Shown: positions 9,677 to 35,100, numbered from the stretch's first letter. The stretch is 64,000 nucleotides of DNA from Acidobacteriota bacterium (GCA_009694745.1 SHUF01000003.1:26558-90557), one strand, 5' to 3'. Program-made: numbers and translations. The notes: generated from the letters alone by a model not told the origin.

Positions 9677-9696
9677 CTAGCCAATGGGGCAATGGC

Positions 9697-13064: not shown

Positions 13065-15482
13065 ATGAAGAAGACTGCATTGACCGCGTTTGTAACCGTG
13101 CTGTTTGGCACGGCCTTCACCTTACGGGCGGGCACGGCCGCGAGCCCGGTTCGCACCGACGCGCCCCTTGGCTTCTCCGTGATGTCTGCGGCGGCGCAGA
13201 ACGACGCCCTGCAAAAGTTCTGCGGCGACTGTCACAACGACATTGACCTGAAGGGCGAGATGTCGCTCGATGGGTTCGACGCGAGACGCGCGGCCGACAA
13301 GGCGGTGTTGGCTGAAAAGGTGGTCAGCAAGTTGCGGACCGGCATGATGCCGCCCAAGGCGCATCCGCAACCGGACGCGGCCACACGAATCGCGCTTGTC
13401 GCCGGGCTCGAGGCCACCCTTGACGCCGCGGCGGTGGCCAACCCCAATCCGGGGCGCCGGCCGTTTCAACGGCTCAATCGCGCGGAGTACGCGGCAGCCG
13501 TGCGCGCGCTGTTCGGGCTGGACCTGGACGTGAGCGCCTACCTGCCGGCCGACACCATCAGCGCCGGCTTCGACAACATCGCTGATGTGCAGATGCCGTC
13601 GGCCACCGTGATGCAGGGGTATCTGCGGGCCGCGGCGCACGTGAGCCGCGTGGCCGTGGGTGACCCGGCCGCGGACCCCACATCAGCCACCTACGACGTC
13701 CCGCGCACCCGGTCGCAGAAGGAACGGCTCGACGGCGCGCCGTTCGGCACACGCGGCGGCACGGTGGTGACCCACAACTTTCCGGCGGACGGCAAATACA
13801 AGTTTCAACTCCTGCTGCATGGGGAGCCGACCGGCGCGCTCTTCGGGCGCACCGTTCGCGCCATCCGGATGGAAGTGGCGATCGACGGTGAACGTGCCGG
13901 CGTGGTGACCGTGGATCGGTGGATTTCGGAATCCGACCCGACCGGCCTGACGGTCTCGACTGAACCCATCTACGTGCGCGCAGGGGCGCGCCGGGTGGCC
14001 GCCACGTTCATTCAGGAGTTCGAAGGTTCGGAAGACGACCTCATCCGGCCGATTGACCACACCCTGGCAGATACCCAGATCGGCGTCGGCTACGGCGTCA
14101 CCACACTGCCCCACCTTCGCAACCTCGCCATCGTCGGCCCGTCGGAAGTGTCGGGTGTTTCCGACAATGCGACGCGGCGGAAGATCTTCTCCTGCCGCCC
14201 GACGGCGCCCAAGGAAGATGTGGCGTGCGCGCGCCGGATTGTTGATCGGCTTGGGACTGAAGCGTATCGCCGGCCATTGACCACAGCTGATGTGGACGAG
14301 CTCATGGCCTTTTATCGCCACGGCGCGGCCACCGACGGGTTTGAGGGCGGGATGCGCACGACGTTGCAAGCGATGCTCGCGAGCCTGCATTTCCTTTTCC
14401 GCGTTGAGGAGGTGCCTGCAGGCGTGGCGTCGGGCGGCATCTACCCGATTGGCGCAGTGGACATGGCCTCACGCCTGTCGTTCTTCCTGTGGGGCACCAT
14501 TCCCGATCGTCCGTTGATCGATGTGGCCCGCACCGGAGCGCTCACGCAGCCCGAGGTGTTCGCCCGTCAAGTGCGTCGCATGCTTGCCGACCCGAAAGCC
14601 GAGGCGCTCGCCACGCGGTTTGCCTCGCAGTACGTCAGGCTGCAGGACCTCGACAAGATCGAGCCCGATGCGCTGGACTACCCCTACTACGACGACACGC
14701 TCGCCGCCGCGATGCATCGCGAAACGGAACTGCTGTTCAACCATCTCGTGCGCGAAGACCGGCCGGTGATGGAAATGCTCACGGCCGACTACACGTTCGT
14801 CAACGAGCGCCTGGCGCGGCACTACGGATTTGGCGGGGTGAGCGGGCCGGAGTTCCGCAAGGTGTTGTATCCCGACGACCTGCGGCGCGGACTGCTGGGC
14901 CATGCGAGCATCCTGACGCTGACATCGCATGGCAACCGGACGTCGCCGGTGCTGCGGGGCAAGTGGGTCATGGAGGTGCTGCTGGGCAGTCCGCCGCCGC
15001 CGCCGCCGCCGAACATCCCTGACCTGGACGAGACGGGTGATGCGGTGGATGGCCGCTTCCTGTCGGTGGCCGAACAACTCGCCATGCATCGGAAGAACCC
15101 GGCGTGCAGTTCGTGCCACAACGTGATCGATCCAATCGGTCTCGCGCTCGACGGTTTTGACGTCACCGGATCATGGCGCATCAAGGACCGCGGCGTGCCG
15201 GTGAACACTGCGGGCGAACTGTATGACGGCACGCCCCTCAAGGGCGTCGCCGATCTGCGCGCAGCGCTCACGGCCCGCTCGGAGGTCGTGGTCACCCATT
15301 TCACCTCAATGCTGATGTCGTACGCGCTGGCTCGCCGCGTGGAGTACTACGACATGCCCGCCGTGCGGCGCATCGTGCGAGACGCCAGGGCTACGGACTA
15401 TCGGTTGTCGTCGCTGATTCTCGGCGTGGCGCGGAGTTCCGCGTTTCGCTCGGCTCGCAAGGAAGCGGTTGTCACGAAGTGA
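13065..15482 (+). CDS. DUF1592/DUF1588/DUF1585-type (PSD/PSCyt) multidomain protein with two CxxCH motifs
   Basis: Signal peptide. CGDCHN near the N terminus and CSSCHNVIDPIGLALDGFD near the C terminus. PPPPPPP linker. Architecture is typical of the Planctomycete/Acidobacteria family that pairs with DUF1552. Confidence 0.75.
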   Translation: MKKTALTAFVTVLFGTAFTLRAGTAASPVRTDAPLGFSVMSAAAQNDALQKFCGDCHNDIDLKGEMSLDGFDARRAADKAVLAEKVVSKLRTGMMPPKAHPQPDAATRIALVAGLEATLDAAAVANPNPGRRPFQRLNRAEYAAAVRALFGLDLDVSAYLPADTISAGFDNIADVQMPSATVMQGYLRAAAHVSRVAVGDPAADPTSATYDVPRTRSQKERLDGAPFGTRGGTVVTHNFPADGKYKFQLLLHGEPTGALFGRTVRAIRMEVAIDGERAGVVTVDRWISESDPTGLTVSTEPIYVRAGARRVAATFIQEFEGSEDDLIRPIDHTLADTQIGVGYGVTTLPHLRNLAIVGPSEVSGVSDNATRRKIFSCRPTAPKEDVACARRIVDRLGTEAYRRPLTTADVDELMAFYRHGAATDGFEGGMRTTLQAMLASLHFLFRVEEVPAGVASGGIYPIGAVDMASRLSFFLWGTIPDRPLIDVARTGALTQPEVFARQVRRMLADPKAEALATRFASQYVRLQDLDKIEPDALDYPYYDDTLAAAMHRETELLFNHLVREDRPVMEMLTADYTFVNERLARHYGFGGVSGPEFRKVLYPDDLRRGLLGHASILTLTSHGNRTSPVLRGKWVMEVLLGSPPPPPPPNIPDLDETGDAVDGRFLSVAEQLAMHRKNPACSSCHNVIDPIGLALDGFDVTGSWRIKDRGVPVNTAGELYDGTPLKGVADLRAALTARSEVVVTHFTSMLMSYALARRVEYYDMPAVRRIVRDARATDYRLSSLILGVARSSAFRSARKEAVVTK

Positions 15483-15492
15483 GGGTTCTGCC

Positions 15493-16902
15493 ATGTATCT
15501 GACCGGAAAACACATCTCGCGCCGCACGGCGTTGCGGGGCCTGGGCGCCACCATCGCGCTGCCGTTGCTCGACTCCATGATCCCCGCGCGCACCGTCTTC
15601 GCCCGCACGGAGGCGGGGCGCCTGGCCGACCGCATGCGACTGGTGTGCATCGAGCAGGTGCATGGGGCCGCTGGTTGCAGCGAAATTGGCGCCGCACAGT
15701 ACTTGTGGAATCCGGCCGAGGTCGGTCGCAAGTTTGACCTGAGCAAAGGCAGCCTGAGTCCGCTTGAGCCGTACCGCGATTACCTGACCATCGTGAGCAA
15801 CACCGACACGCGAATGGCCGAGGCGTTTGCGCCGGCCGAGGTCGGCGGCGATCACTTCAGGTCAAGCGCCGTGATGTTCACCCACGTGCGTCCGAAGCTG
15901 ACCGAAGGGTCGGATGTGCGAGTCGGCACGTCGATGGACCAGCTCTACGTGCAGAAGTTCGGCCAGGACACACCGATCCCGTCGATGCAGCTCAGCATTG
16001 AGCCGGTGGACCAATCCGGCGGCTGCGCCTACGGCTACGCGTGCGTCTACACCGACACCATCAGCTGGGCCGGGCCGGAAGAGCCGCTGCCGATGGTGCG
16101 CGACCCGCGCATGGTGTTTGAGCTGTTGTTCGGCGCCGGCGGCACACCCGAACAGCGCACCATGCGGCGCGCGACGGATCGGAGCATCCTGGATATGCTC
16201 GTGTCGCAGATGGCGGGCCTTCGGCGTGACTTGGGCCCGGCCGACAAGGCGCGGCTCGATCAGTACGCCAGTAATATTCGAGAGATCGAACAGCGCATCC
16301 AGCGCGTCGAAGCGCGCAATGCCAGCGGCGAGACGCGCGAGTTGCCCGGCGCTCCGGCCGGCGTGCCCGACGCGTTTGATGAACACGTCAAGCTGATGTT
16401 CGACCTGCAGCTGCTGGCGTTTACCTCAGACACCACGCGGGTGTTCTCGTTCAAGCTCGGCCGCGACGGTTCAGGCCGCGTGTACCCAGGCAGCGGCATT
16501 GAAACCGGCTTCCACAATGCGTCGCACCACGGCGTGGCCGAGGAACGCATCCGTCAGTTCGCCGAGATCAATAAACACCACGTCTCGATGCTGCCGTACT
16601 TCCTGGAGCGGTTGAAGACCACCATGGAAGGCGACGCGTCGCTGCTCGACAAGACGCTGATCGTGTACGGCTCACCGATGGCGAATGCCAATGTGCACAA
16701 TCACCGGAACTGTCCGCTGATCCTGCTGGGGCGCGGCGGCGGCATCCTCGAAGGCGGCGTGCACCTCAAAGCCGACAGCGGCACGCCCATGGCCAACGTG
16801 ATGCTGGGCCTCATGCACAAGGTGGGACTGGACATGAAGACATTCGGCGATAGCAGCGGCGACTTCTCGTTCACGGCGCCAGGCGCGGTGTCACATGCGT
16901 AG
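15493..16902 (+). CDS. DUF1552 (HXXSHH) family protein with Tat-like signal
   Basis: ATG 15493 with GAGGG RBS. N terminus SRRTALRGLGATIALPLLDSM. Signature FHNASHHG. Confidence 0.75.
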   Translation: MYLTGKHISRRTALRGLGATIALPLLDSMIPARTVFARTEAGRLADRMRLVCIEQVHGAAGCSEIGAAQYLWNPAEVGRKFDLSKGSLSPLEPYRDYLTIVSNTDTRMAEAFAPAEVGGDHFRSSAVMFTHVRPKLTEGSDVRVGTSMDQLYVQKFGQDTPIPSMQLSIEPVDQSGGCAYGYACVYTDTISWAGPEEPLPMVRDPRMVFELLFGAGGTPEQRTMRRATDRSILDMLVSQMAGLRRDLGPADKARLDQYASNIREIEQRIQRVEARNASGETRELPGAPAGVPDAFDEHVKLMFDLQLLAFTSDTTRVFSFKLGRDGSGRVYPGSGIETGFHNASHHGVAEERIRQFAEINKHHVSMLPYFLERLKTTMEGDASLLDKTLIVYGSPMANANVHNHRNCPLILLGRGGGILEGGVHLKADSGTPMANVMLGLMHKVGLDMKTFGDSSGDFSFTAPGAVSHA

Positions 16903-18646
16903 GCTGCGGGTGCTCGCGCTCGTCGGCGCGTTGTCACTGATGCTGGTGGCGGCTGCGCCGGCGCCGGAATCCAGAGTCGCTGACGCGGCGATGAAGGGCG
17001 ACGTGACCACGGTGCGGACGTTGCTCCGCGACGGCGCCGACGTCAACGCGGCCCAGGGCGATGGCATGACCGCGCTCCATTGGGCGGCGCTCAACGGCGA
17101 TATCAAAACGATGGACCTGTTGCTGATTGGCGGGGCCGTCGTGGAGCCACTGACCCGCGTCGGCGGATACACGCCGCTGCATCTGGCGAGTTCGCGCGGA
17201 CATGCGCCGATCGTGGCTCGACTGCTTGAAGCAGGAAGCAAACCGAAGGCGGTCACCGAGACCGGCGTACAGCCCATCCACCTTGCGGCGCAGGCCGGCA
17301 GCGCAGACGCGGTGCGGTTCCTGCTCGATCGCGGAGCCGACGTGAATGCCGTTGACGCGACGCATGGCCGCACGCCTCTGGTGTTTGCGGCCTCGCAAAA
17401 TCGCATCGAGGCCATGCGGATGCTGATCGAGAGGGGCGCGAACAGCGTGTTGACCACGACGGTCATCGATTACGGTCAGCGGTCCCGGGCCGACAGCACC
17501 GCCCGCATGACCCGCGACCGCGTGATCACGGCGACCACGGGACGAACGCCGATGGCGCCGCCACAATTTGACCCGCCGCAGACCGGCAGGGCCGCCACCG
17601 TGGGGCCCGATGGCCAGCTGGCCGCCGACCCTGCGCCAGGACGAGGCGGGCGCGCCGGAGGAGTCGCAGGCGGGCCACGACCCGCCTCCGACATCCAGCA
17701 GATTGGCCGGCAGGGCGGACTCTCGGCGCTGCACTATGCGGCGCGCGACGGGTTTGCCGCCGCAGCGACGATGCTGCTTGATTCGGGTGTGGACGTAAAC
17801 CTGCCGACCGACGGGGACAAGTCAACGCCGATGCTGGTGGCGATCATCAACGGCCACTACGACCTCGCGATGACGTTGCTCAAGCGCGGTGCAAATCCGA
17901 ACCTGGTGAGCGATGACGGCGCGGCGCCACTCTTCGCTCTGGTCAATCACGAGTGGGCGTTGCGCACGTGGTACCCCCAGCCAACGGCCGCGGCCCAGCA
18001 GCGGGCCTCTCACCTCCAGTTGATGGAAGCATTGCTGCAGGCGGGCGCCGATCCCAACGCGCGCACGGGGTCGCACATCTGGTACGCGGCCTACAATGCC
18101 GGGCGCATGGGCGTGGATTACACCGGAGCCACGACCTTCTGGCGCGCGGCGTATTCACTGGACGTGGAAGCGATGCGCTTGCTCGTGCGGCACGGCGCCG
18201 ACCCGAACATCGCGACGATGTCGTACGGCGCCACCGCGCGACAGGGCCTGCCTGCGATGCCGTCAGGCGGCCCGCACGTGCCGCCGTTCCATGCCGCCAG
18301 CGGCGTGGGTTACGGCACCTCGCGCGTAGCCCAGCAGCACCAGCATGTGCCGGATGGCTGGATGCCCGCGGCCAAGTACTTCCTTGAGGAGTTGGGCGTG
18401 GACATCAACGTCCGTGACGCCGACGGATTCACGGCGCTCCACCACGCTGCGGCGCGCGGCGACAACGCGATGATTCTGTACCTCGTGAAGCGGGGCGCGA
18501 ACGTCATGGCCGTGAACCGCAATGGCCAGACCACCGTGGACATGGCCAACAGCCCCGAGCAGCGCACGCAACCCTTCCCCGAGACCATCAAGCTCCTCGA
18601 GGGCATGGGCGCGAAAAACAACAACAACTGCCAGGCCTGCAAGTAG
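16895..18646 (+). CDS. Secreted ankyrin-repeat protein
   Basis: Start overlaps the DUF1552 stop by 8 nt. Signal peptide MRRLRVLALVGALSLMLVAAAPA. Repeated G.TALHWAA..G....LL..GADVNA ankyrin units. Pro/Gly-rich insertion. C-terminal CQACK. Confidence 0.85.
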   Translation: MRRLRVLALVGALSLMLVAAAPAPESRVADAAMKGDVTTVRTLLRDGADVNAAQGDGMTALHWAALNGDIKTMDLLLIGGAVVEPLTRVGGYTPLHLASSRGHAPIVARLLEAGSKPKAVTETGVQPIHLAAQAGSADAVRFLLDRGADVNAVDATHGRTPLVFAASQNRIEAMRMLIERGANSVLTTTVIDYGQRSRADSTARMTRDRVITATTGRTPMAPPQFDPPQTGRAATVGPDGQLAADPAPGRGGRAGGVAGGPRPASDIQQIGRQGGLSALHYAARDGFAAAATMLLDSGVDVNLPTDGDKSTPMLVAIINGHYDLAMTLLKRGANPNLVSDDGAAPLFALVNHEWALRTWYPQPTAAAQQRASHLQLMEALLQAGADPNARTGSHIWYAAYNAGRMGVDYTGATTFWRAAYSLDVEAMRLLVRHGADPNIATMSYGATARQGLPAMPSGGPHVPPFHAASGVGYGTSRVAQQHQHVPDGWMPAAKYFLEELGVDINVRDADGFTALHHAAARGDNAMILYLVKRGANVMAVNRNGQTTVDMANSPEQRTQPFPETIKLLEGMGAKNNNNCQACK

Positions 18647-20355: not shown

Positions 20356-21438
20356 TTATTTCGACAGGGGCCGGCCTGTGCCGTGATACCGGATCTGGGT
20401 GATCTCGGCCAGCACCGACAGGGCAATTTCGGCAGGGGTCCGGCCGCCCAGATCCAGCCCCACAGGAGCGTGAATCGCCCGCAGACGTTCCTCCGGGATG
20501 CCCTCGGCTCGCAGCATTTCGTTGATCAACACAGTCTTGCGGCGGCTGCCGAGCAGCCCGATGTATCTGGCCGGCGTCGTGACCGCCGCCAGCATGCAAT
20601 CGGCGTCGAGCTTGTGTCCGCGCGTGGCGATCACAATGAAACTGTTCCAGCTGTAGTCGATGCCGGCGAGAGTGGCGGGCACGTCCCCCTGCAGGATTGT
20701 CGCGTTCGGAAATCGGGCCGGGTCGGCGAACTCGGGCCGGTCCTCAACCACGGTCACATCAAAATCGAGCATCGCCGCCTGACGGGCGATGGCGAGTGCG
20801 ACGTGGCCGCCGCCGGCGATCACGATGCGCGGCCGGCTGGCGATGGCTTCGATGAGCAGATCTTCGGTCTCCGACTTCACGGTGCGCGCCGTGCCGTGGG
20901 GTATCTGCGCCAGCGCCTCAGCAGTGGCGCGCTGGTCGGCCTCGGCATCGCCGAGCGAACCCAGCCGCCGGCCATCGGCCCGCACCGCAATTCGCCCCAG
21001 GAGTGTCAGGGCGCCCTGCTCTTTGCCGAGCCGTGTCACGAGCGCAACGGGCGCGCCCCCGGCTGCTGCGCCCACCATCTCGGGCAGCAGGTCGATGCCA
21101 TCAAATGCGAGTGCCTGATCGTCGCGCTGCACCAGGATCCACATCGTACCGCCACACACGAGTCCGGTGTTCCATGCCAGGTCTTCAGTCAGCTCGTACG
21201 CACGCAGCGAGTGACCGCCGGACTGGAGAATCCCCTGGGCCGTTTCGATTGCATCAGCCTCGACGCACCCACCGCCGAGAGTGCCTACGGCGGCGCGCAG
21301 GGGCTCGCCGTCACCAAGCACCAGCGTGGCGCCGGCCACCTGCGGCGTGCTGCCGCTTGTGCGCACAACGGTGGCCACCGCAAAACGTCGTCCGGCGGCC
21401 CGGCGCTCCGCCATGCGGCCATAGAGAGAATCCTGCAC
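20356..21438 (-). CDS. XdhC/CoxI family maturation factor
   Basis: FAVATVVRTSGSTPQ N-domain and Rossmann-like IVIAGGGHVALAIA C-domain. GTG 21438 start fits the family N terminus. Alternative start ATG 21414. Confidence 0.8.
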   Translation of the reverse strand: MQDSLYGRMAERRAAGRRFAVATVVRTSGSTPQVAGATLVLGDGEPLRAAVGTLGGGCVEADAIETAQGILQSGGHSLRAYELTEDLAWNTGLVCGGTMWILVQRDDQALAFDGIDLLPEMVGAAAGGAPVALVTRLGKEQGALTLLGRIAVRADGRRLGSLGDAEADQRATAEALAQIPHGTARTVKSETEDLLIEAIASRPRIVIAGGGHVALAIARQAAMLDFDVTVVEDRPEFADPARFPNATILQGDVPATLAGIDYSWNSFIVIATRGHKLDADCMLAAVTTPARYIGLLGSRRKTVLINEMLRAEGIPEERLRAIHAPVGLDLGGRTPAEIALSVLAEITQIRYHGTGRPLSK

Positions 21439-23186: not shown

Positions 23187-23762
23187 CTACACGAGGTCCG
23201 CCGGGCGATCGACGTCGCGGTGTACGCCGGGATCAGGAACATCGATCGTCAGGCACTGCTGGCGGGACCGCTCGTCACTGAGCGTGGACTCCACGGACGC
23301 GAGAAGGATTCGGGCGCGCAGCGCCGTTGAACACACGATCGGGTGCCCGCGGCGGCCGCTGAAGCTGGCGCAGGCCGTCAGGCCGGTACGTCCGGCCGCC
23401 GCGATCACGGCAGCCACGGTGGCTGGCTGCACGTACGGCATATCGCCCGGCAGCAGGACGCAGGCGTCACCCTCCCCGGTCTCGGCGATGCCCGCCTGGA
23501 TGGATGAGAACATACCGCGCGACGGATCGGGATTCACGACCACCGAGATCGGCAGGCCGGCCAGGGCCGCGCGCACAGCCGCTTCCCCATCCGCTGACAC
23601 CACCACCACACAGCGATCGGCGCCGCCCGCCAGCAACGAAGCTACGGTCTGCCGCACCATCGGCTCGCCGTCAACCAACGTCAGGAGCTTGTGCGGCCGC
23701 CCGGGAGCCTCCGCGGCAAATCTGGAACCCGCGCCGGCCGCGGGCACCACCCCAATCGTCAC
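23187..23762 (-). CDS. MocA-like nucleotidyltransferase (NTP_transf_3 family)
   Basis: GTG 23762 overlaps the upstream stop (GTGA). VTIGVVPAAGAGSRF P-loop-like motif, then LLPGDMPYV. The long ORF 23187..24359 is an artificial 5' extension. Confidence 0.75.
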   Translation of the reverse strand: MTIGVVPAAGAGSRFAAEAPGRPHKLLTLVDGEPMVRQTVASLLAGGADRCVVVVSADGEAAVRAALAGLPISVVVNPDPSRGMFSSIQAGIAETGEGDACVLLPGDMPYVQPATVAAVIAAAGRTGLTACASFSGRRGHPIVCSTALRARILLASVESTLSDERSRQQCLTIDVPDPGVHRDVDRPADLV

Positions 23763-24508
23763 AGGTCGTTCTGCCGCGCGAGTGTGCGGGCAATCGAGAC
23801 CGTCCGGTAGATCGCGGTGCCCATCGCGCCGAGGGCAATCAGGGCCACCGCGGCTGTGAGCACACTGCCGGCGGGCCATCCCCATCGCGTCGTCACCGCC
23901 GCATCCGCGAGCGCGGCGAGAGCGAGCAGCACAAGCCGTTCGGCGCGTTGCATGACGCCGCCGGTGCCACTGACGCTGACCGCTTCGCCACGCGCGCGCG
24001 TGTAGCTGACGAGCAGCGAACCGCTGATGGCCAGCACAGAGATCGCAGCGCCCCATGGGGTACTCGAAAGATACCAGGTCACACCCACAAACGAAAATGC
24101 CTCGGCGAACCGGTCGAGCGTGGAGTCCATGAACGCGCCGTAACGGCTGGCCATGCCACGGGCCCGGGCGATGCGGCCATCGAACACGTCTGCCACGCCG
24201 CCAAACAGGATCGCCCAACCCGCAAGCGACAGGGCGCCCTGAGCAAACGCGGCACCAGCGCCTATGCCGAAGGCCACGCCTAGGTAGTTGAAAATGTCTG
24301 GCGAGACCCTGGCGCGAATCATCGCCCGCTCGACGGGGCCAATCACCCACATCAGCCAATCACGGGCCCAGAACCCCAGGAGCACCGTGGACGATCGTCG
24401 CGCCACGTCCGGGTCCCGGGGACGATTCCGGCCGACGATCGCGAACACCGGCATCGTGGCGACCACAACAGCGACAAGCGTCAACGCGAGGGTATCAATC
24501 AGAGTCAC
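23759..24508 (-). CDS. CDP-alcohol phosphatidyltransferase family protein
   Basis: Signature DVFDGRIARARGMASRYGAFMDSTLDRFAE (D-G-x2-A-R...G-x3-D-x3-D). Multiple TM helices. Confidence 0.85.
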   Translation of the reverse strand: MTLIDTLALTLVAVVVATMPVFAIVGRNRPRDPDVARRSSTVLLGFWARDWLMWVIGPVERAMIRARVSPDIFNYLGVAFGIGAGAAFAQGALSLAGWAILFGGVADVFDGRIARARGMASRYGAFMDSTLDRFAEAFSFVGVTWYLSSTPWGAAISVLAISGSLLVSYTRARGEAVSVSGTGGVMQRAERLVLLALAALADAAVTTRWGWPAGSVLTAAVALIALGAMGTAIYRTVSIARTLARQNDL

Positions 24509-25493
24509 GTGGCCTTTGTCGCTGAGGACGATCGCGCAGATAACGGAAGACCCGCGGCCACAGGAAGATGAGCGGCCATCGTTGCTCGCGGGAAGTCAGG
24601 ACCATCTTAGTGCCGCCACTCCGTTCAATCTTCCGCACAATGTAGTCCAGCCAACCCTCGTAGAGTATGACGTGTTTGAGCAGGCGCACCGTGGCGCGCA
24701 CCTTGCTGAGGCGAAAGTACGATCGCACACGCAGGCGATCGACCGCTGAGGCGCGGCCCTGCTGCCGGTAGATGACCGAGGCCCTCGCAAGCGCCCCCTG
24801 GGCCACCAGGTGGTCAAGCAGCGGCGTGTAGATGGCGCACAGGGCGTCTCGCTGGGCGGCCACCAGGGTGCGGGCGTGATCACCGGACTCCGGCCGGGTC
24901 TCACCAGCGAGAGAACGCGACAGCGCGGCCTGGAGAAACTCATCCACAGTGAACGTCTCGGGCAGCGACGGCCGGCTCCAGGCGTAGGTGGCCGCACGGG
25001 CTTCGGCAATGGCATCGCCGATCGCCCGCGCGCTCGCGGCATCCCGCGTCCAGGACAGCAGAACGAACTGGCACAAGCGTCCCTGGACAAAATGGTCGCG
25101 ACGACGGGGCGAACAGGCGCGACGGAAGTCGGCAAGCGAAATCACACAACACTTGGCGCGGGCCGCGCGATCGGTCACTGAAATCACGTTGGGCGCAAGT
25201 ACATGGGCCAGCGCGGTCGCGACCTTCGGCGAATACGACGTGCCGACGGTGGCCGAGAGCGATCGGTAGGCGTCGCCATAACGGTCAACGACCACGAAGA
25301 AGTCGAAGGCGCTGTCGGCTCGTGGCTTGCGGCCCTGGGCCCGGGAGCCGTAGTGAATGATGCCCAGGCTGGAAGGCCCGAACGCCTGGGCCAGAAATGC
25401 GGAAAGCGCCAGGGCGTCGGCCTCGACAGCCTGATCCAGGCCCCACGCGAGCGCGGCGGCCAGGTCCCGGGCGGGCGCGGTTTCAGACGACAT
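24495..25493 (-). CDS. Tam41/Mmp37-like putative phosphatidate cytidylyltransferase
   Basis: From memory of yeast Tam41: IIHYGSRAQG resembles FGYGSGVFEQ; FDFFVVVD resembles IDIILGV; AKCCVISLADF...FVQGRLCQFV resembles VKYGVVSMETL...YLAGRLQKPV; ALSRSLAGETR resembles ALSYAGDIR. Overlaps both neighbours (11 and 14 nt). Confidence 0.5.
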   Translation of the reverse strand: MSSETAPARDLAAALAWGLDQAVEADALALSAFLAQAFGPSSLGIIHYGSRAQGRKPRADSAFDFFVVVDRYGDAYRSLSATVGTSYSPKVATALAHVLAPNVISVTDRAARAKCCVISLADFRRACSPRRRDHFVQGRLCQFVLLSWTRDAASARAIGDAIAEARAATYAWSRPSLPETFTVDEFLQAALSRSLAGETRPESGDHARTLVAAQRDALCAIYTPLLDHLVAQGALARASVIYRQQGRASAVDRLRVRSYFRLSKVRATVRLLKHVILYEGWLDYIVRKIERSGGTKMVLTSREQRWPLIFLWPRVFRYLRDRPQRQRPRDSD

Positions 25494-26328
25494 TGTGAAA
25501 GGGCCGTCCGGCGCGCATGTCTTCCAAGGTCTCGATCATTCGGTTGCGAAGCGATGCCGCGAAATCAGGGATCTCGGATTCCTCCATCGGCGGCTGGAAC
25601 GGCCCGATGATCCGGATGCGAATGCGGGTGCCGGCGGCTTTGGTGAACATGTCGGCCACGGTGCGCATGTGCCACATCCCGTCACCGACGATGCAATAAA
25701 CCGGTAACGGGGCGCGGCCTAGCACCAGGCTGAGGCCTCGAATCATGAACGGGAGAATTGAACCGTCCTTGCTTCGATGGCCCTCGGGGAAGATGAAGAA
25801 TGAAGCCTCCCCGCGTTTGCAACGATCGGCCGCGGCGGCAATCGCCGCGAGGTCGGACCTGAGACTCTGGCGGGTCTGGGCGATCAGGGGAAACCCCGCC
25901 ATCCGGATGAACGGCGAGACACCGGGGAGGCCCCAGGCGTAGCGGCTCCGGGTGGGAATCAGCATCAGGTAGCCCGTGCTGACCCTGTATGCAATAAGGG
26001 CGTCGAGTACCGACTGGTGGTTCATGATGACCACGCGGTTTTCCGGACCGATCGCGCCTTCAATGGAGATGCGGACCCCGGCAATGATTCGGAGCAGGAC
26101 CAGGGGCGCTGCGGCAGAAAAGCGGCTCCAGGGGACCAGAAAACGGGTGGTCTGGACTGGAAATAACCACGCCAGAGGAATTAGGATAAACCTTTGCACA
26201 AATCCCATGAAGAGAATGAGATACGCCAAATAGACCAACACGAAGACCGCGCTCCTCGTCACACGCCAGATACCGCGTGGCACACTGAGTAGCGGGGATT
26301 CGTTCAGGGTCATTCGGGGAAGAGACAT
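25483..26328 (-). CDS. PlsC-like (lyso)lipid acyltransferase
   Basis: Motifs MNHQSVLD and FPEGHRS. N-terminal TM. Start is uncertain: ATG 26328, ATG 26313 or GTG 26382. Confidence 0.8.
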   Translation of the reverse strand: MSLPRMTLNESPLLSVPRGIWRVTRSAVFVLVYLAYLILFMGFVQRFILIPLAWLFPVQTTRFLVPWSRFSAAAPLVLLRIIAGVRISIEGAIGPENRVVIMNHQSVLDALIAYRVSTGYLMLIPTRSRYAWGLPGVSPFIRMAGFPLIAQTRQSLRSDLAAIAAAADRCKRGEASFFIFPEGHRSKDGSILPFMIRGLSLVLGRAPLPVYCIVGDGMWHMRTVADMFTKAAGTRIRIRIIGPFQPPMEESEIPDFAASLRNRMIETLEDMRAGRPFHNVV

Positions 26329-27643
26329 GGCAAACCAATCGGGCGAGGAAAGCGAGACAGCGGACCAACGAGGTGGCGACACCCCGCAGGCCGTTGCGAC
26401 GACAGAGTACGACTACAGCAATTTTTACTATTCATCCAGCGACGACTTGTTCGCCATTTTTGGCCCCTACGACGACTGGTGGTACGGCAGCGCACGCAAC
26501 AGCGGCTATTACCTGTTCTCGCAGCCGATGTCGACGCCCCCTGGCCCCCGCATCAACCTGGAAGAGCAGCTGCACCACGAGACGCTCAAGCTGTTCAACC
26601 TGGCATCGTACAACTACCTCGGCTTGTCCACCCACCCCGAAGTCATCGCGGCGGCCCACGCGGCGCTGGACAAGTACGGGCTAGGCGCGGCAGGCTCGCC
26701 GATTCTCAGTGGCACGATGGACGTCCACCTGACCCTTGAGAAGGAACTGGCGGCCTTCAAGCACAAAGAAGCGGCGATGGTCTTCCCGACCGGGTACAGC
26801 ACGAACGTCGGCCTCCTGTCGGCGCTCATGCGTCCGGGTGACTGGGTGATTCTGGATCAGAACGTCCACGCCAGTATTGTGGACGGCGCGATCCTCGCCA
26901 AGGCCCAGGTGAAGTTCTTCCGGCACAACCAGCCGGCCGACCTCGAGAAGAAGCTGAAGGGCACCACGGGCAAGCGCCTGGTCGTGGTGGAAGGCGTGTA
27001 TTCGATGGACGGCGACATCGCCCGCCTGCCGGAAATGGTCGAAATCTCCAAGCGCGCGGGCGCGCGTATCCTGATCGACGAAGCGCACTCGAGCTTCGTC
27101 TACGGCGCGGAAGGCCGCGGCGTGGTTGAACACTTCGGCCTCGAAGATGAAGTGGACATCCACGTGGGCACCTTCTCAAAGGCGCTCGGTGGCCAGGGTG
27201 GCTACGTCGCGGGCTCGCAGAGCCTCTACAACTACCTGATGGGCTTTGCGCGGTCGCGGGTGTTTTCGTGCGCGTTGTCACCGGCGGTCACCGCCGGCGT
27301 GCTGGCGGCGCTCCGGATTGTGCAACGTGAGCCCCAGTTGCGCCAGCGGCTCTGGGAAAACGTGGCGCACTTCCGCGGGTTGCTGGCCACGGCCGGCGTC
27401 GATGTGGCGGAATCCACGTCGCAGATCATCCCGATCATGATTCGCAACGATCGGAAGATCCTGGGTATCGCGCAGACACTACAGAAGGAAGGGCTGTATC
27501 TGCAGCCCATCATTTTCCCGGCGGTCGCCAAACACCGGTCACGGTTCCGGGTGTCGATTTCGGCAAGCCATTCGACGGCGGATCTCGACCGTGCCGCCGC
27601 CATCCTGATTAAGGTTCTTCGTGAAGAGGAGATCATCAAGTGA
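26327..27643 (+). CDS. Alpha-oxoamine synthase family PLP enzyme (serine palmitoyltransferase / KBL / BioF-like)
   Basis: SYNYLGL, DEAHS, PLP-lysine motif GTFSKALGG. About 90 aa N-terminal region with GYYLFSQP, reminiscent of the YPYF substrate-lid region of Spt-like enzymes. Confidence 0.85.
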   Translation: MANQSGEESETADQRGGDTPQAVATTEYDYSNFYYSSSDDLFAIFGPYDDWWYGSARNSGYYLFSQPMSTPPGPRINLEEQLHHETLKLFNLASYNYLGLSTHPEVIAAAHAALDKYGLGAAGSPILSGTMDVHLTLEKELAAFKHKEAAMVFPTGYSTNVGLLSALMRPGDWVILDQNVHASIVDGAILAKAQVKFFRHNQPADLEKKLKGTTGKRLVVVEGVYSMDGDIARLPEMVEISKRAGARILIDEAHSSFVYGAEGRGVVEHFGLEDEVDIHVGTFSKALGGQGGYVAGSQSLYNYLMGFARSRVFSCALSPAVTAGVLAALRIVQREPQLRQRLWENVAHFRGLLATAGVDVAESTSQIIPIMIRNDRKILGIAQTLQKEGLYLQPIIFPAVAKHRSRFRVSISASHSTADLDRAAAILIKVLREEEIIK

Positions 27644-28332
27644 GCGAGCTGAAGCCCGGACAGGTGCGGTACCTCTACCGCCATGCGATCGGTGGGTTCT
27701 TCGAATTCCCCACTGAGAACGCGCGCAAATTGATCCCGACTTTCATGTCGCCGGTCGAGCCTCATCACGGCCAGAGCGTGTTGTCGGTCATGGCCTTCGA
27801 CTTCAGCGGCAGCTCGGTGGGCGAATACGGCGAACTCGTGTTGTCAGTACCCGTGGCGCCGCGGATTACGCGCGACCAGCCGATGCCGCGCGCGGCGTTT
27901 TTTCCGTTCCTCGTCGGCACCACAACCAAGGCCTCACGTGAACACGCCATCAAGTTGTGGCACCTGCCGCACTTCATGGACGACATCCAGATTGAGTTCG
28001 AAGTCGGCGCGCGCGAAATCACCGTGGCCGCGGCGCACGGCGGCAGCAAGATCCTGGACATGCGGATCACCGACTACGAATGGGAACCGGTGGAGCATTA
28101 CTACCAGGCGTTTGAACACGACGCCACCGGCACCTACATGGCCACGATGGCGATGAACGCGCAGTTCAGCGAAAACGAGGAAGAGCGCGGGTCAATCGAG
28201 ATCTATCCGCACGCCTTCACCGCCGGCCTCAACCCGGATGGCGTCAACGGCACCCCATTTCGCGAATTGTGGATGCGCGACGGCCGCCAGACCTTCGACC
28301 CGCTCGAGACCATCGGCCCAGGCGGGGCGTGA
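27640..28332 (+). CDS. Acetoacetate-decarboxylase-fold (ADC-like) protein, function unknown
   Basis: GTG 27640 overlaps the AOS stop (GTGA). The pattern ARKLIPTFMSPVEPHHGQSVLSVMAFDFSGSSVGEYGELVLSVPV resembles the ADC-family N-terminal block. Confidence 0.45.
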   Translation: MSELKPGQVRYLYRHAIGGFFEFPTENARKLIPTFMSPVEPHHGQSVLSVMAFDFSGSSVGEYGELVLSVPVAPRITRDQPMPRAAFFPFLVGTTTKASREHAIKLWHLPHFMDDIQIEFEVGAREITVAAAHGGSKILDMRITDYEWEPVEHYYQAFEHDATGTYMATMAMNAQFSENEEERGSIEIYPHAFTAGLNPDGVNGTPFRELWMRDGRQTFDPLETIGPGGA

Positions 28333-29231
28333 TGTCCGAACGAGTCTGCGTCATCGTCAATCCGGCCGCCGGCCGGGGGCGAGGCGCCCGGGAACTGCCC
28401 GGCGTTACAGCCGCATTTGCCGCGGTGGGCATCACCGACATTCGCACCACGCAGAAGCGCGAGGACGAACAGGCGATCGCCCGTCGCGCCATCGACGAAG
28501 GCGCCACCACGCTGGTGGCGGTCGGCGGTGACGGCACATGGGGCAACGTGGCCAACGCCATCCTCGGCTCGGGTGCGGGCAGTCAGGTGCGACTGGCGCT
28601 GGTTGCGGCCGGGACGGGCAACGACTTTGCGAAGACGGCCGGCTGCCCGGCCACGGACGCCGCGGCCACGGCCCGGTTCGTGGCCGAAGGCGTCGAGACC
28701 CGCGTGGATGTGGGCCGCATCGAAGATCACTTCTTCCTGAACATCACAGGCTTCGGGTTCGACGTGGCGGTGCTCGAAGACATTCTCAAGATCAAGTGGG
28801 TGAAGGGCGAGGCGCTGTATCTCTACTCGGCGCTGCGCCAGTTAACGTCCTACCCGGGCGTGGAGATCGACGTGGCGTCTGCGGCGAAGCAGCGCGGCTC
28901 GTCGCGGCACCTGATGCTGGTGATCGCGAACGCAAAGATTTTCGGCGGCAAGTTCCGCATCGCCCCTGAGGCATCGCTCACCGACGGTTGCCTCGACGCA
29001 GTGGCCATCCTCGACGCGTCCACGTGGCGCCGCGTGAACCTGTTTGGCGCGGTCGCGCGCGGCACCCATCACGCGCTCAGTGAAGTCATCATCGAACAGG
29101 CGCCGTCGTTTACGGTCCAGTTCTCGGGGCCCCCGGCGTATGAGACCGACGGGGAATACCGCCAGGCGAAAACGGCCGAACTGGAGATCGTGTGCGTACC
29201 TGGCGCACTGCGGCTGGTTGCGCCTGCATGA
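28332..29231 (+). CDS. DAG-kinase-catalytic-domain lipid kinase (YegS/BmrU/sphingosine-kinase-like)
   Basis: ATG shares one base with the upstream TGA. VCVIVNPAAGRGRG, VAVGGDGTWGNV, AAGTGNDFAK. Confidence 0.85.
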   Translation: MSERVCVIVNPAAGRGRGARELPGVTAAFAAVGITDIRTTQKREDEQAIARRAIDEGATTLVAVGGDGTWGNVANAILGSGAGSQVRLALVAAGTGNDFAKTAGCPATDAAATARFVAEGVETRVDVGRIEDHFFLNITGFGFDVAVLEDILKIKWVKGEALYLYSALRQLTSYPGVEIDVASAAKQRGSSRHLMLVIANAKIFGGKFRIAPEASLTDGCLDAVAILDASTWRRVNLFGAVARGTHHALSEVIIEQAPSFTVQFSGPPAYETDGEYRQAKTAELEIVCVPGALRLVAPA

Positions 29232-30445
29232 AAGCCATCAGTTTCGCCGCGCCGATTCCGACGTATCTCGCCACACAGGTCGCCGGAAGACTCTCGGAGC
29301 GCTGGCTCGTCGGACCTCACGCCTGCACACGCTACGCCGACGTCGCCACTCCTGACTTGCCCGGCCAGGATTGGGTGCGCATTCGCACCGTACTCGGCGG
29401 CATCTGCGGCAGCGACCTCGGCATCGTCGCCCTCGAGGCCAGTCCGTCCGCGTCGCCGTTTTCGAGTTTCCCGTTTGTCATCGGACACGAAAACGTCGGA
29501 GTGATCGAAGCCTGCGGCACAGGGGTGCTGGCGTTCGGCGTTGGCGATCGCGTCACAGTGAATCCGCTGCTGTGTTGCGAGCCGAGAGCCGTCACGCCGC
29601 CGTGTGATGCGTGTGCCACGGGCCACCACTCGCGCTGCGCCCACTTCACTGACGGGGCCCTGGCACCGGGGATGTTCATCGGCACCACGCGCGCGCTGGG
29701 CGGCAGCTGGGGCGAGCAATTCGTGGCACACCAGTCGCAGTTGCTTCGCGTGCCCAACGCGGTCAGCGACACCGCTGCCGTCATGACCGAACCTTTTGCG
29801 TGTTGTGTGCATGCGGTCCGCGGCGCCATCCCTGAAGCTGGGCAACACGTGCTGGTGATTGGCGCCGGCACCATGGGCTTGCTGATGGTGGCCGCGCTCA
29901 AGGCGCTGGCGCCCGGCTGCCGGGTTACGGCGCTGGCGCGACATCCCTTTCAAGCGCGTCATGCCGAACAGCTCGGCGCGACCCGAACGGTGATGGCGGG
30001 GGGCGACTACCTCGGCGAACTCGCCGAAGTGGCCGGCACGCGGCTCCTGAAGCCCATCCTGGGCCGGCCCATCGGCATCGGCGGGTTTGATGCCGTGTTT
30101 GTGTGCATCAGCAGCGCCCGCGGCGTGGAAGACGCGATGCGCTTCGCGCGCGCCGGCGCAACGATCGTTCTGCTTGGCAACGCGACCACACTGCGCGGCC
30201 TCGACTGGACGCCCCTATGGATCAAGGAACTGACGTTCCGCGGCACGCTGGCGTACGGCAGTCACGGACACGGCGGCGCCAGCGTCAATGCGTTCAACGA
30301 AGCCGCCGCGCTCATCGCCGAAGGCCGGGCGCCCATTGGCGGCCTGGTCACTCACCAGTTTCCGCTCGCGAAGTACCAGGACGCGCTTCAAATGGCGCGC
30401 GCCAAAGGCTCCGGCGAAAGCGTCAAAGTCGCGTTCCGGTTTTAG
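29228..30445 (+). CDS. Zn-dependent medium-chain dehydrogenase/reductase
   Basis: ATGA overlap with the kinase gene. [14 protein letters not shown], Cys-rich structural-Zn loop [12 protein letters not shown], Rossmann [11 protein letters not shown]. Confidence 0.85.
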
Positions 30446-32162: not shown

Positions 32163-35100
32163 ATGCCCGTCCGCTCCCACCAACTGCTCCGCCGCATCGT
32201 CGTCATTCGCCCGGGCGAAGGGGTGACGGCGTGGCTGATGTTCACGTACTCCTTCCTGGTCATGACGGCCTACAACATCGTCAAGCCGATCACCTGATCG
32301 AAGGCCATCAGCGCGCTGGGCGCCGACAACCTGCCGTACGTCTTGATGGGCGCCGCCATCATCATCGGCACGCTGATGCACCTGTACGGGCGCAGCACCG
32401 CCCGGCTGCCGAGGCGCATGGTGGCTCCGGCCACGCAGGCCGGGCTGGCCGTGTTGCTCGTCGCGTTCTAGGTGCTGTTCCGCACCAGAGCGGCATGGGT
32501 CTCTGCGGCGTTTTTGGTGTTTGGCCTCATCTTCGGCTTGCTGCTGGTGAGCCAGTTCTGGACCCTGGCCAACGAGATCTACGACTCGCGTCAGGCCCGG
32601 CGGCTCTTCGGGTTCATTGGTGGCAGCGTGAGCCTGGGCGGCATCACCGGGGCGGCCGTCACGATATTCGCGGTCAGTTCGCTTGGCTCCGACTATCTGG
32701 CGCTGCTCAGCGCCGTCGTGCTGCTGCTCTGCGCGGCCATCGTGGTGGTGATTGGTCGGCGACAACCGGCGGTGGACGACACGCCACTCGTGACCGGCGA
32801 ACCTGAGCCCGACAGGCACGACGCGTAACGGTTGTTACTCGGATTGCGCCACCTCCAACTCATCGCGCTCGTCGTCGGCGTCGCCGCGCTCGGTGCCGTC
32901 TTCGTCGAACAGTAGCTCAACATAGCCGTGGCTGAAAGCGGGGCCACAACCGCCGACATCACCCGCTACCTCGGCCGGGTCACGATGTTCCTGTCGATGG
33001 CCGGACTAGTGGTGCAGGTCGGGCTGACGAGCCGATTGCACCGGACGTACGGTCTGGCCGCGTCTCTGCTCTTGCTGCCGATCGTCCTGGGCGCCAGCAC
33101 TGTGGTCATCTTGGCCACAGGAGCCGTGTGGGCGGCGGCTCTGGCGCGGGTGCTCGATACGTCGTTGCGATACACGGTGGACCGCACCACTCGTGAAGTG
33201 TTGTTCCTGCCGCTTCCAGTGGACCTCACCCAACGGGCCAAACCGTTTGTTGATGTCACCGTCGATCGCATTGCGAAGGGCATCGGCGCGGTGCTGCTGC
33301 TGGTGCTCATCAAGCCGTGGGGTCTCGGTCTGGCCTGGCACCAACTGGGTTACGCCAACCTGATCATCGTGGCAGCGTAAATCGGCCTTGCACTCGCGGC
33401 ACACCGCGAATACCTCAATATGTTCCGGCGCAAAATGCACACAGGCGCCATCCAGCCCGCGGCAGTGAGGTTCGACATCGCCGACAGTCGCACCATTGCC
33501 CTGCTTGTCAGTGAATTGTGGTCGGCGAAAGATGCGTCGGTGGTGTACGCCATCGACATGCTCGAGACGGTGGGCCGCCCCGACGTGCTGCCAGCGTCTC
33601 TGTTATCGCATCAGTCGGGCAACGTACGGGCACGAGCGCTCCTCGCACTGGAACGGAGCGAGTCCGCCGACACCGAGTCGATGCTGCCGATCGTGCGACG
33701 GCTCATGACCGATTCCGAAGCCGACGTGCGCGCCGCTGCGGTGCGAGCCCTGGCCGCGTTGCAACAGGACTCCGAGCGGTCATCGCTTCGTCCCCACCTG
33801 GCCGATCCGTCACCGGCCGTGGCCGCAGCCGCCGCGGTGGAGCTCGCCGACGCGGGCGTGGCAGACGATGAGTCGGCGGCTGAGGCAGCGCTGGCGCGAA
33901 TCATCGCGGATCCGGATGATCCCGCGGGCCGCCGCCACGCTGCCGCGGCCCTGGCGCGCATCCGCAATCCGGCGTTCCGCATCCTGCTCGTGCCGCTCAT
34001 TCATGACCCTGACGAGTCGGTGGCGCGCGAGGCGATCAAAAGCGCGGGCGCGCGAGGCAGTGTGGACGCGCTACTGGTGCCGGCGCTGGTGTCGCGACTG
34101 GGGCATCGCACGCTCAAGCAGCCGGCGCGTGAAGCGTTGGCGGCGTCGGGCGAAGCGGTCGTGGGCGTGCTGACGCATGTGATGGCCGATCCGCACGAGC
34201 ACGTATGGGTGCGGCGCCATGTGCCGGCCACACTGCAGGCCATCCCCTGCCAGCAGTCGGTGGACGCGCTGGTGACGGCGCTTGATGACCCCGACAGCTT
34301 TCTACGGTTCAAGAGCGTGATGGCAATCGAGCGGCTGCAGCGGGCGCACCCCGAGTTGCAGGTGCCATCGGGCGTGATCGAGGCGCGACTGCTGCGCGAG
34401 GCGGCGCACTACTGCGATCGGCTCACCCTGAGGCAAAACTTGATAGAGCGCGATACCGAAAGCGCCGGCACACTGCTGGTGCGTGCACTCGACGACAAGC
34501 TCACCTGCAGCCTAGACCGCATCTTCCGGCTGCTGGGCCTGCGCTACTCGGCCACCGAGCCCGCAGCGCTGGCGTTTGAAGAGGTACTGGAAGGGTCGCC
34601 GATGGCCACGACGATCACGGCCACGAGCCGGATCGCCACGCTGTCGATGACACCGAACGAATTCCTGGCGTTGCTTTCCGAGAATGTCGGCCTGGCGGGT
34701 GGCCTGTTCCGACAGGCGATCAGTTCCCGGGGCCTGGGCGCAGGGCGAACCCTGGTTCGCGGACAGCGGCCCTCGCGTGAGGGCGCCGCAACCGGCGAAC
34801 TCGGTGCGGTGGATCGCCTGCTCGTGCTGCAGTCGAGTCCGCTTCTGGCGCACGCCACGACGGCCCAGTTGTGGAGCCTGTCGCAGATCGCCAGGCAAGT
34901 GACCCTTGCGGCCGGTGCAGAACCCGTCAAGTCCGACACCGGGCCGTCGATGCTGTTTGTGCTGACCGGCACCCTGCGGGTGGACCAGGGCGGCGCCTCC
35001 GCCATGGCTGCAGCCGGCGACGTGATCGGCGTCCATGAGACACTGGCCGGCACCCGGATCGAGGCGACCGTGACGGTCGTGGAGCCGGCCACGCTGCTGA

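Follow-up and report, generated by a model that had tools for sequence, protein, structure and literature searches.

A 64,000-nucleotide stretch of the Acidobacteriota bacterium assembly GCA_009694745.1 (SHUF01000003.1:26558-90557), referred to here as the window, encodes on its minus strand a protein, P0001, with the fold and signature residues of the Tam41 cytidylyltransferases. P0001 belongs to a new, Pfam-invisible branch of the Tam41 superfamily and is very probably a catalytically active Tam41-type lipid cytidylyltransferase. Its gene overlaps genes for an acyltransferase and a CDP-alcohol transferase and lies next to a divergent operon encoding a serine palmitoyltransferase (SPT)-like protein and a lipid kinase, an arrangement that recurs across phyla. 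The best explanation is that P0001 acts outside bulk phospholipid synthesis, and with moderate confidence we propose that it is a CTP:lipid-phosphate cytidylyltransferase of a dedicated phosphosphingolipid pathway, with ceramide-1-phosphate as its probable substrate.

P0001 has the fold and signature residues of Tam41

The P0001 gene has a third-position G+C of 0.76, typical of real genes within the window (G+C ~65%), and its product comprises nucleotidyltransferase (NTase) and winged-helix domains followed by a basic helical tail at the C-terminus. A sequence-only reading of this DNA had called it a bacterial Tam41/Mmp37-like cytidylyltransferase on account of four Tam41-resembling blocks, all of which are found in the translation: IIHYGSRAQG (residues 46-54), SAFDFFVVVD (61-70), KCCVISLADF...VQGRLCQ (114-142) and LSRSLAGETR (191-200). 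The Pfam model of the family, PF09139, did not match P0001 at E ≤ 0.1, and a six-frame search of the whole genome with this model returned nothing at E ≤ 10. Support for the assignment comes from the predicted fold, from a widened family profile, and from PF09139 matches among more distant relatives.

An AlphaFold2 model of P0001 was built on profile A1, which comprises 41 close relatives (predicted local distance difference test score, pLDDT, 89.9; predicted template modelling score, pTM, 0.88). The structural comparison suggested by the sequence-only reading placed this model far closer to two Tam41 enzymes than to any other chain: the Firmicutes Tam41 with bound CTP-Mg (7ecd_A; Z 21.1, root-mean-square deviation (rmsd) 2.8 Å, 242 residues) and the Schizosaccharomyces pombe Tam41 (6ig2_A; Z 17.2, rmsd 3.6 Å, 226 residues). 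The third-best chain in the structure search against representatives was an aminoglycoside nucleotidyltransferase with a Z of 6.8. Foldseek likewise matched the model to Tam41 (E 1e-7, probability 1.00). Identity between P0001 and the solved Tam41 proteins in the structural alignments is 12-15%.

A second profile, A2, consisting of 88 sequences with P0001 as the first row, detected the solved sequences directly, with an E of 1.4e-11 for 6ig2_A and 9.5e-8 for 7ecd_A. In the resulting alignment Y48-G49-S50 corresponds to the YGS of Tam41, D64 to the Asp of ID(F/L), K114 to the Lys of KYG, G138-R139 to GRFQKP, and S194...R200 to LSYxGDxRM, so that the motifs YGS, D-F, K-x-x-V-x-S, GR-x-Q and S-x-x-G-x-x-R are shared. 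Among 89 distant full-length relatives reached through A1, 45 match PF09139 at E ≤ 0.01 and 39 score at least 24 bits, the gathering threshold of the model; one of them, P0233, is retrieved by A1 at E 3.4e-36 and itself scores 47.7 bits against PF09139. On a quick tree of the 88 rows, with branch support from the Shimodaira-Hasegawa-like approximate likelihood ratio test (SH-aLRT), P0001 falls in a clade of 25 rows (SH-aLRT 97), two of which match PF09139, while the largest group contains 38 matches among 41 rows. This placement, together with the small number of PF09139 matches in the clade, indicates that P0001 is a divergent Tam41 member outside the reach of the Pfam model.

The signature residues of the nucleotidyltransferase are retained: G49, S50, D64, K114 and R139, along with P101 and K288, are invariant in A2, and R200 is kept in at least 90% of the sequences. 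D64 is the sole invariant acidic residue. Classical NTases have three acidic residues, whereas Tam41 keeps a single conserved Asp and holds CTP by basic residues (PMC11646218). The predicted active site of P0001 matches this Tam41 type, with one acidic residue and a basic CTP site. P0001 has no hydrophobic segment, that is, no 19-residue window with a mean Kyte-Doolittle value >1.6. Residues 250-332 include 21 Lys and Arg against 8 Asp and Glu, a net charge of +13, and the last helix is amphipathic, its helical hydrophobic moment peaking at 308-325. Tam41 likewise has a basic C-terminal tail and no transmembrane helices, and attaches to membranes by an amphipathic, positively charged helix at its C-terminus (PMC7018664). 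Judged by composition only, P0001 thus resembles Tam41 as a putative peripheral-membrane enzyme.

Relatives of P0001 number 454 at E ≤ 1e-3 in a 90%-identity collection, where the few that carry names are listed as hypothetical proteins of Vicinamibacterales or Acidobacteria, and the family comprises 1104 cluster representatives in a 50%-identity library. Within the phylum it was found in three of 301 sampled genomes at E ≤ 1e-10, with none among the listed genomes of the same order in that sample, and it is therefore an accessory trait.

The Tam41-like gene belongs to a conserved seven-gene core

The sequence-only reading had described the P0001 gene as embedded between acyltransferase and CDP-alcohol transferase genes, and the Pfam assignments of the flanking genes agree (Table 1). 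The upstream PlsC-type reading frame overlaps that of P0001 by 11 nt (25483-25493), and the P0001 frame overlaps that of the downstream transferase by 14 nt (24495-24508). Such overlaps are consistent with translational coupling, and judging by them the P0001 gene would be co-transcribed with both neighbours. Within the window the SPT-like, DAGK_cat kinase and PF01066 transferase genes all lie ≤5 kb from the Tam41-like gene.

Table 1. Genes of the lipid cluster in the window, with the number of assessable loci in which each accompanies the Tam41-like gene.
Gene product	Coordinates	Strand	Assignment	Loci/assessable loci
Tam41-fold lipid-phosphate cytidylyltransferase candidate P0001	24495..25493	-	ATG start, 332 aa	
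CDP-alcohol phosphatidyltransferase, (archaetidyl/phosphatidyl)inositol-phosphate synthase type	23759..24508	-	PF01066, 47.4 bits	71/71 (downstream of Tam41-like gene)
PlsC-family acyltransferase	25483..26382	-	PF01553, 43.6 bits	72/77 (upstream of Tam41-like gene)
SPT-like alpha-oxoamine synthase, first gene of divergent operon	26327..27643	+	PF00155, 196.8 bits	65/67
Acetoacetate-decarboxylase-fold protein	27640..28332	+	PF06314, 27.8 bits (below 29.8 cut-off)	61/63
YegS/BmrU-type lipid kinase (DAGK_cat + YegS_C)	28332..29231	+	PF00781, 93.5 bits; PF19279, 86.8 bits	61/63
Zn-dependent medium-chain dehydrogenase, threonine 3-dehydrogenase-like	29192..30445	+	PF08240, 70.7 bits; PF00107, 56.0 bits	50/57
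MobA-like NTP transferase, 191 aa	23187..23762	-	PF12804, 107.5 bits	5/65

To place the cluster among other genomes, species-representative genomes were scanned, yielding 80 loci with a Tam41-like gene from Vicinamibacterales, Gemmatimonadota, Longimicrobiaceae and Eisenbacteria. Neighbours were counted by tblastn with the window proteins, loci with enough flanking DNA being counted as assessable (Table 1). In 43 of the 51 loci assessable for it, spanning Vicinamibacterales, Gemmatimonadota and Eisenbacteria, the seven-gene core is complete. The 80 loci include one from a metagenome-assembled genome labelled Gemmatimonas aurantiaca. Several homologs are fused to partners from the cluster: PlsC with the Tam41-like domain (P0126, P0132, P0137, P0141 and P0134), the Tam41-like domain with the CDP-alcohol transferase (P0162), and NTP_transf_3 with the Tam41-like domain (P0192). 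Cytochrome P450 is fused to the Tam41-like domain in P0145 and P0156. The suggestion that P0001 provides a dedicated CMP-activation step feeding the transferase thus has support from context, in the unbroken presence of the transferase gene (71/71 loci) and in its fused form.

The PlsC-type gene is given as its longest open reading frame (ORF), and an ATG 18 codons in may be the true start; the protein has hydrophobic windows at residues 40-58, in its N-terminal segment. Its translation contains NHQSVLD and FPEGHRS, which we take to be PlsC motifs I and III. The CDP-alcohol transferase scored highest among the NCBIfam models against archaetidylinositol phosphate (AIP) synthase (121.3 bits, below cut-off), followed by the BT1523-type phosphatidylinositol phosphate (PIP) synthase (NF052561; 117.4 bits, cut-off 350) and PIP synthase (109.0 bits, below cut-off), with 48.2 bits to the CDP-inositol-using domain of DIPP synthase and merely 19.9 bits to PgsA. 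It contains the motif DX2DGX2AR...GX3DX3D (motif quoted in PMC9246714).

In the divergent operon, the SPT-like protein scored 376 bits against the BioF/Kbl model of NCBIfam, 375.3 against BioF and 364.9 against SPT (CFB type), all below cut-offs. Between its gene and that of the lipid kinase lies a gene for a protein with the acetoacetate decarboxylase (ADC) fold, whose AlphaFold2 model (pLDDT 94.1) matches acetoacetate decarboxylase 3bh2_A with a Z of 22.5. The catalytic residue of the ADC family is a Schiff-base lysine. Across 23 orthologs His, Glu and Arg residues are invariant, and no Lys is found among the invariant or nearly invariant columns. The ADC-fold protein was accordingly rejected as a working decarboxylase or aldolase, and is probably no classical decarboxylase. 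The lipid kinase carries a GGDG motif and scores 127.2 bits against TIGR00147, above the cut-off of 118.65; its longest ORF starts at 28269, and the ATG at 28332 overlaps the preceding stop codon by 1 nt. The Zn-dependent dehydrogenase reaches 103 bits, below cut-off, against the Tdh model of NCBIfam, and is a candidate 3-ketosphinganine reductase.

The MobA-like NTP transferase was considered as a further core member and rejected because of its rarity (Table 1). It is kept as an accessory on account of the overlap of its GTG start with the TGA stop of the CDP-alcohol transferase gene, the single fusion noted above and the parallel with Caulobacter CC_1153. The protein scores 86.9 bits as MocA-type in NCBIfam, and an XdhC-family gene lies 1.7 kb further on (20356-21438, minus strand), beyond two plus-strand K+ channel/TrkA genes. 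The MobA-like protein could serve the lipid operon or, given the nearby XdhC gene, molybdenum cofactor cytidylylation.

Variant contexts and a second clade

Three Gemmatimonadaceae loci (L074 at 9250-9941, L076 and L080), a set that includes the locus labelled Gemmatimonas aurantiaca, show no detected PlsC-type gene between the SPT-like and Tam41-like genes, so the acyltransferase may be encoded elsewhere or be dispensable there. Two Gemmatimonadales loci (L043:4841-10931 and L044:6051-15615) have the Tam41-like gene and the transferase gene without an SPT-like or PlsC gene, and a separate, convergent DAGK_cat kinase gene just downstream of the transferase gene. Both also encode an unannotated protein of ~347 aa, a cytochrome P450 and a phosphopantetheinyl transferase, and L044 additionally has MlaE/MlaF/MlaD lipid-transport genes and an SRPBCC protein. 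The substrate in this context may be a different lipid alcohol.

The named members of a second clade (clade II) are labelled Deltaproteobacteria or Myxococcota, and a homolog search with a clade II member returned no Caulobacter among the named matches. From a sample of 80 metagenome loci, the 41 of at least 5 kb were searched by tblastn with the window proteins: an SPT-like gene was found in seven, and no other window protein was detected at the thresholds used. A Pfam scan of 47 neighboring ORFs from 15 loci showed that in 11 the gene immediately upstream, on the same strand, encodes a DAGK_cat kinase; the choice of ORF was ambiguous in four. The same scan found NTP_transf_3 in four loci, fatty-acid desaturases in four, calcineurin-type phosphoesterases in two, PF01066 transferases in two and an SPT-like plus epimerase pair in one. 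Two low-G+C loci (L140 and L144; 0.47-0.49) encode in a row NTP_transf_3, a calcineurin-type phosphoesterase, DAGK_cat, the Tam41-like protein and a lipid A-type acyltransferase (PF03279), a row that by analogy resembles the CC_1153/CC_1158/CC_1160/CC_1161 set of Caulobacter. Since DAGK_cat genes accompany the Tam41-like gene in both clades, L043 and L044 included, the lipid kinase is its most constant partner in the clades covered.

A predicted phosphosphingolipid pathway and its alternatives

In the proposed pathway, the SPT-like enzyme would condense an acyl thioester with serine to give 3-ketosphinganine, the ketone of which would be reduced by the Tdh-like Zn-dehydrogenase. The YegS-type kinase and the PlsC-type acyltransferase would jointly produce ceramide-1-phosphate, either by phosphorylation of ceramide or by N-acylation of sphinganine-1-phosphate in the manner of lysophosphatidate. 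P0001 would transfer CMP from CTP onto ceramide-1-phosphate, forming CDP-activated ceramide and pyrophosphate, and the coupled transferase would then exchange CMP for an alcohol, which its nearest families suggest to be myo-inositol-1-phosphate. The kinase product as the P0001 substrate, an idea of the sequence-only reading, fits the comparative data and, by analogy, Caulobacter genetics. Under this proposal the gene set is chemically self-sufficient, needing neither a separate ceramide synthase nor a head-group donor, with the exception of a final phosphatase. More tentatively, as a serious possibility, the seven genes may form a full sphingolipid counterpart of the CDP-diacylglycerol pathway that runs via CDP-ceramide: the SPT-like enzyme, a Tdh-like Zn enzyme in place of CerR or a reductase of the short-chain dehydrogenase/reductase (SDR) type, a sphingosine-kinase-like YegS enzyme acting on the long-chain base, N-acylation of sphinganine-1-phosphate by the PlsC-type enzyme, the Tam41-type enzyme, and a PIP-synthase-like transferase yielding an inositol-phosphate phosphoceramide.

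A number of observations count against the ceramide-1-phosphate proposal. P0001 matches no Pfam family and no NCBIfam model at E ≤ 0.1, and a search of PDB sequences with profile A1 returned no solved Tam41 at E ≤ 10, only chance matches at E > 1. The SPT-like protein scores no better against the SPT model than against the BioF/Kbl models. No phosphatase that would finish an inositol-phosphate head group is encoded within the cluster, and a literature search found no sphingolipid from Vicinamibacterales or Gemmatimonadota. In Caulobacter, a Tam41-type protein, CpgC, is encoded beside spt, a DAGK_cat kinase and a CDP-alcohol transferase, as P0001 is, a likeness drawn by domain label. The Caulobacter kinase CpgB (CC_1160), shown experimentally to be a ceramide kinase, also phosphorylates diacylglycerol in vitro (PMC10331486), so that a kinase neighbor is compatible with phosphatidate as the P0001 substrate. 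Unlike the proposed relay from P0001 to its transferase, the CpgC-dependent step does not require the Caulobacter transferase CpgA (CC_1159), which has a PgsA-type domain and is required for the second phosphoglycerate only (PMC9393093). Because CpgA is dispensable for the CpgC step and is thought to use CDP-glycerate, a relay from a Tam41-like enzyme to a CDP-alcohol transferase is without genetic precedent.

The remaining objections are those that favor phosphatidate. P0001 could be an ordinary Tam41-type CDP-diacylglycerol synthase, its phosphatidate coming from PlsC or from a kinase that recycles diacylglycerol. The transferase would then make phosphatidylinositol phosphate, and a private supply of phosphatidylinositol (PI) could donate the head group to ceramide from the divergent operon. 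According to PMC11646218 and PMC7018664 all characterized Tam41 enzymes, including the bacterial one from Firmicutes that is the best structural match to P0001, use phosphatidate. Phosphatidate is the classical product of PlsC enzymes, five representatives have PlsC and the Tam41-like domain in one protein, and the transferase scores best against PIP and AIP synthases, enzymes that use CDP-diacylglycerol or CDP-archaeol. Consistent with this alternative, the genome encodes a myo-inositol-1-phosphate synthase (113.7 bits), the inositol phosphoceramide of Bacteroides is made through PI (PMC9246714), and DAGK_cat kinases, CpgB included, can phosphorylate diacylglycerol.

We nevertheless consider this alternative, the chief rival to ceramide-1-phosphate, rather unlikely. 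As the sequence-only reading suspected, P0001 is an extra enzyme, a canonical cdsA being present on another contig of this 83% complete assembly (G000:C48:97600-98382; PF01148, 190 bits); P0001 itself is no CdsA, having no PF01148 match and no hydrophobic segments. The genome also encodes PgsA-type enzymes and a second PIP/AIP-synthase-like CDP-alcohol transferase (G000:C59:8065-8508; L086:1216-2286, minus strand), which scores 134.9 bits against archaetidylinositol phosphate synthase, is extended at its N-terminus by ~100 residues and adjoins EF-P and thymidine kinase genes. With these genes present, a private CDP-diacylglycerol route would be redundant, and, given the second transferase, the organism may also produce an inositol glycerolipid. 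The cluster lacks the AUR1/BT_1522-type head-group transferase that the phosphatidate model requires. The corresponding family, PF14378, exceeds its cut-off in two of five cluster-bearing genomes searched, its best score in the genome of P0001 being 23.7 bits; the family is broad and matches 11 of 14 control genomes. The phosphatidate model would also leave the cluster without a ceramide-forming N-acyltransferase, and it does not account for the joint presence of SPT, reductase and kinase genes with the trio in 43 of 51 loci across phyla.

It is improbable, in our estimate, that P0001 activates another phosphorylated lipid; candidates would be sphinganine-1-phosphate that has yet to be N-acylated, and a hydroxylated or other lipid alcohol on which the kinase acts. 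This reading also allows a sphingoid backbone derived from an amino acid other than serine. It is suggested by the trio of Tam41-like, transferase and kinase genes that occurs without SPT beside P450 and phosphopantetheinyl transferase genes in L043 and L044 (with Mla genes in L044), by the P450 fusions P0145 and P0156, by the scores of the SPT-like enzyme, which cannot assign serine, and by the presence in the cluster of a conserved ADC-fold protein without an assigned reaction. The SPT-containing context is, however, by far the commonest (65/67 loci), and in Caulobacter a protein of the homologous type acts, by genetic evidence, after ceramide-1-phosphate.

Very improbable is the reading in which P0001 makes a soluble CDP-head group (CDP-inositol or CDP-glycerate) or is a non-catalytic scaffold, and the transferase moves the head group onto ceramide or diacylglycerol, on the pattern suggested for CpgD and CpgA. 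In its favor, the CDP-glycerate that is the presumed donor for CpgA, the Caulobacter PF01066 enzyme, is made by the soluble cytidylyltransferase CpgD (PMC12275187), and the window transferase has the DIPP synthase match given above. Against it, the known soluble head-group cytidylyltransferases have other folds (CpgD resembles IMPCT; PMC12275187), a MobA-like enzyme of that general kind is separately encoded in the window, no substrate other than a lipid is known for the Tam41 fold, the P0001 tail is strongly basic and amphipathic, and the invariant G49, S50, D64, K114 and R139 speak against a dead protein.

Other features of the genome and window

The neighborhood of the myo-inositol-1-phosphate synthase gene was considered as a possible lipid cluster and rejected: it contains no lipid genes, the neighbors encoding acetyl-CoA synthetase, an SDR, an ABC ATPase and a TonB-domain protein. 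At 32472-33380 (plus strand) of the window, two adjacent short ORFs of 118 and 150 aa weakly match the TLC ATP/ADP transporter family, and the first weakly matches MFS as well; the two could be fragments of a single transporter gene that is disrupted or was miscalled. The gene order at 13065-18646 (plus strand) is a Planctomycete-type DUF1592/DUF1588/DUF1585/DUF1595/DUF1587 protein, then a DUF1552 protein and then an ankyrin-repeat protein of 583 aa. Ankyrin-rich proteins are uncommon in free-living bacteria.

Significance

Phosphosphingolipids are known to acquire their head groups by two routes: a glycerophospholipid donates the head group, or ceramide receives one that is CDP-activated. CMP activation of ceramide itself, if true, would be a third route. 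Gemmatimonas aurantiaca exists in culture, and the cluster points to unrecognized sphingolipid production in abundant soil phyla, Gemmatimonadota and Vicinamibacterales. It also supplies candidates for non-canonical ceramide-forming and ketosphinganine-reducing enzymes. CMP-activated ceramide has so far appeared in print only as a possibility for Caulobacter CpgC (PMC11324152). The term CDP-ceramide was not found by a full-text literature search. A search on bacterial Tam41 and sphingolipid gave nothing on topic, as judged by titles and abstract openings, and in the literature from 2022 on no main text among the matches listed names both Tam41 and ceramide. Coupling or fusion to a CDP-alcohol transferase is a feature without counterpart in the Caulobacter system. 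Because the Tam41-type gene is probably translationally coupled, and sometimes fused, to that transferase, the idea of a CMP-activated ceramide becomes directly testable.

If the seven-gene CDP-ceramide pathway is correct, the PlsC-type enzyme would add a third, independent type to the bacterial ceramide synthases, the kinase-to-Tam41 chemistry would explain the CpgC step in Caulobacter, and unreported inositol phosphosphingolipids would be predicted in Gemmatimonadota and Vicinamibacterales. If the substrate is instead phosphatidate, the cluster would represent a second, non-CdsA CDP-diacylglycerol route for inositol lipids, which is still unusual in bacteria.

Comparison with characterized systems

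P0001 has the same NTase plus winged-helix architecture as the mitochondrial CDP-diacylglycerol synthase Tam41/Mmp37 (TAMM41) and its Firmicutes homolog (PDB 6IG2, 6IG4 and 7ECD; PF09139), and profile A2 aligns the signature motifs that they have in common. The two differ in setting: Tam41 serves cardiolipin synthesis, whereas P0001 is found with SPT, a lipid kinase and a CDP-alcohol transferase. The integral-membrane CDP-diacylglycerol synthase CdsA (PF01148) catalyzes the type of reaction proposed for P0001, transfer of CMP from CTP onto a lipid phosphate, although its fold is unrelated to that of Tam41; yeast Tam41 partly rescues depletion of cdsA in E. coli (PMC7018664).

The inositol lipids of Bacteroides thetaiotaomicron depend on the myo-inositol-1-phosphate synthase BT_1526, the PIP synthase BT_1523, the PIP phosphatase BT_1525 and the phosphoinositol dihydroceramide (PI-DHC) synthase BT_1522; CDP-diacylglycerol is derived from CdsA, and the head group is then moved from PI to ceramide (PMC9246714). 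BT_1523 is related to the window transferase and has the same catalytic motif, and both are linked to sphingolipid production. In contrast to Bacteroides, the window cluster has no BT_1522-like or BT_1525-like gene, and a Tam41-type enzyme precedes the transferase.

The closest parallel in gene content is the ceramide (di)phosphoglycerate pathway of Caulobacter crescentus. Loss of CpgC (CC_1161, CCNA_01219) leaves ceramide phosphate in place and abolishes ceramide phosphoglycerate (CPG) (PMC9393093), so that CpgC is genetically required after ceramide-1-phosphate. CpgC was first described without a conserved domain; CC_1161 homologs from alpha- to delta-proteobacteria were later given the Tam41 domain IPR015222 (PMC11324152 S1 Text), and PF09139 has no match in the Caulobacter control genome. 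Ceramide in NDP-activated form (NDP, nucleoside diphosphate) was suggested as a possible CpgC product in the Conclusions of PMC11324152, which is the same chemistry as that proposed here for P0001; a May 2026 preprint still calls the CpgC mechanism unidentified (PMC13228409). The MobA-like NTP transferase CC_1153, required for CPG2 (PMC11324152 and S1 Text), parallels the MobA-like gene coupled to the window operon. The systems differ in their head group, which is phosphoglycerate in Caulobacter, whereas the window transferase is of the inositol-phosphate-synthase type, and in ceramide synthesis, for which Caulobacter uses bCerS, CerR, AcpR and AasR and the window offers as candidates a PlsC-type acyltransferase and a Zn-dehydrogenase. 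By this comparison, the cluster represents a variant of an arrangement known from Caulobacter genetics, in which a kinase, a Tam41-type protein and a CDP-alcohol transferase occur together.

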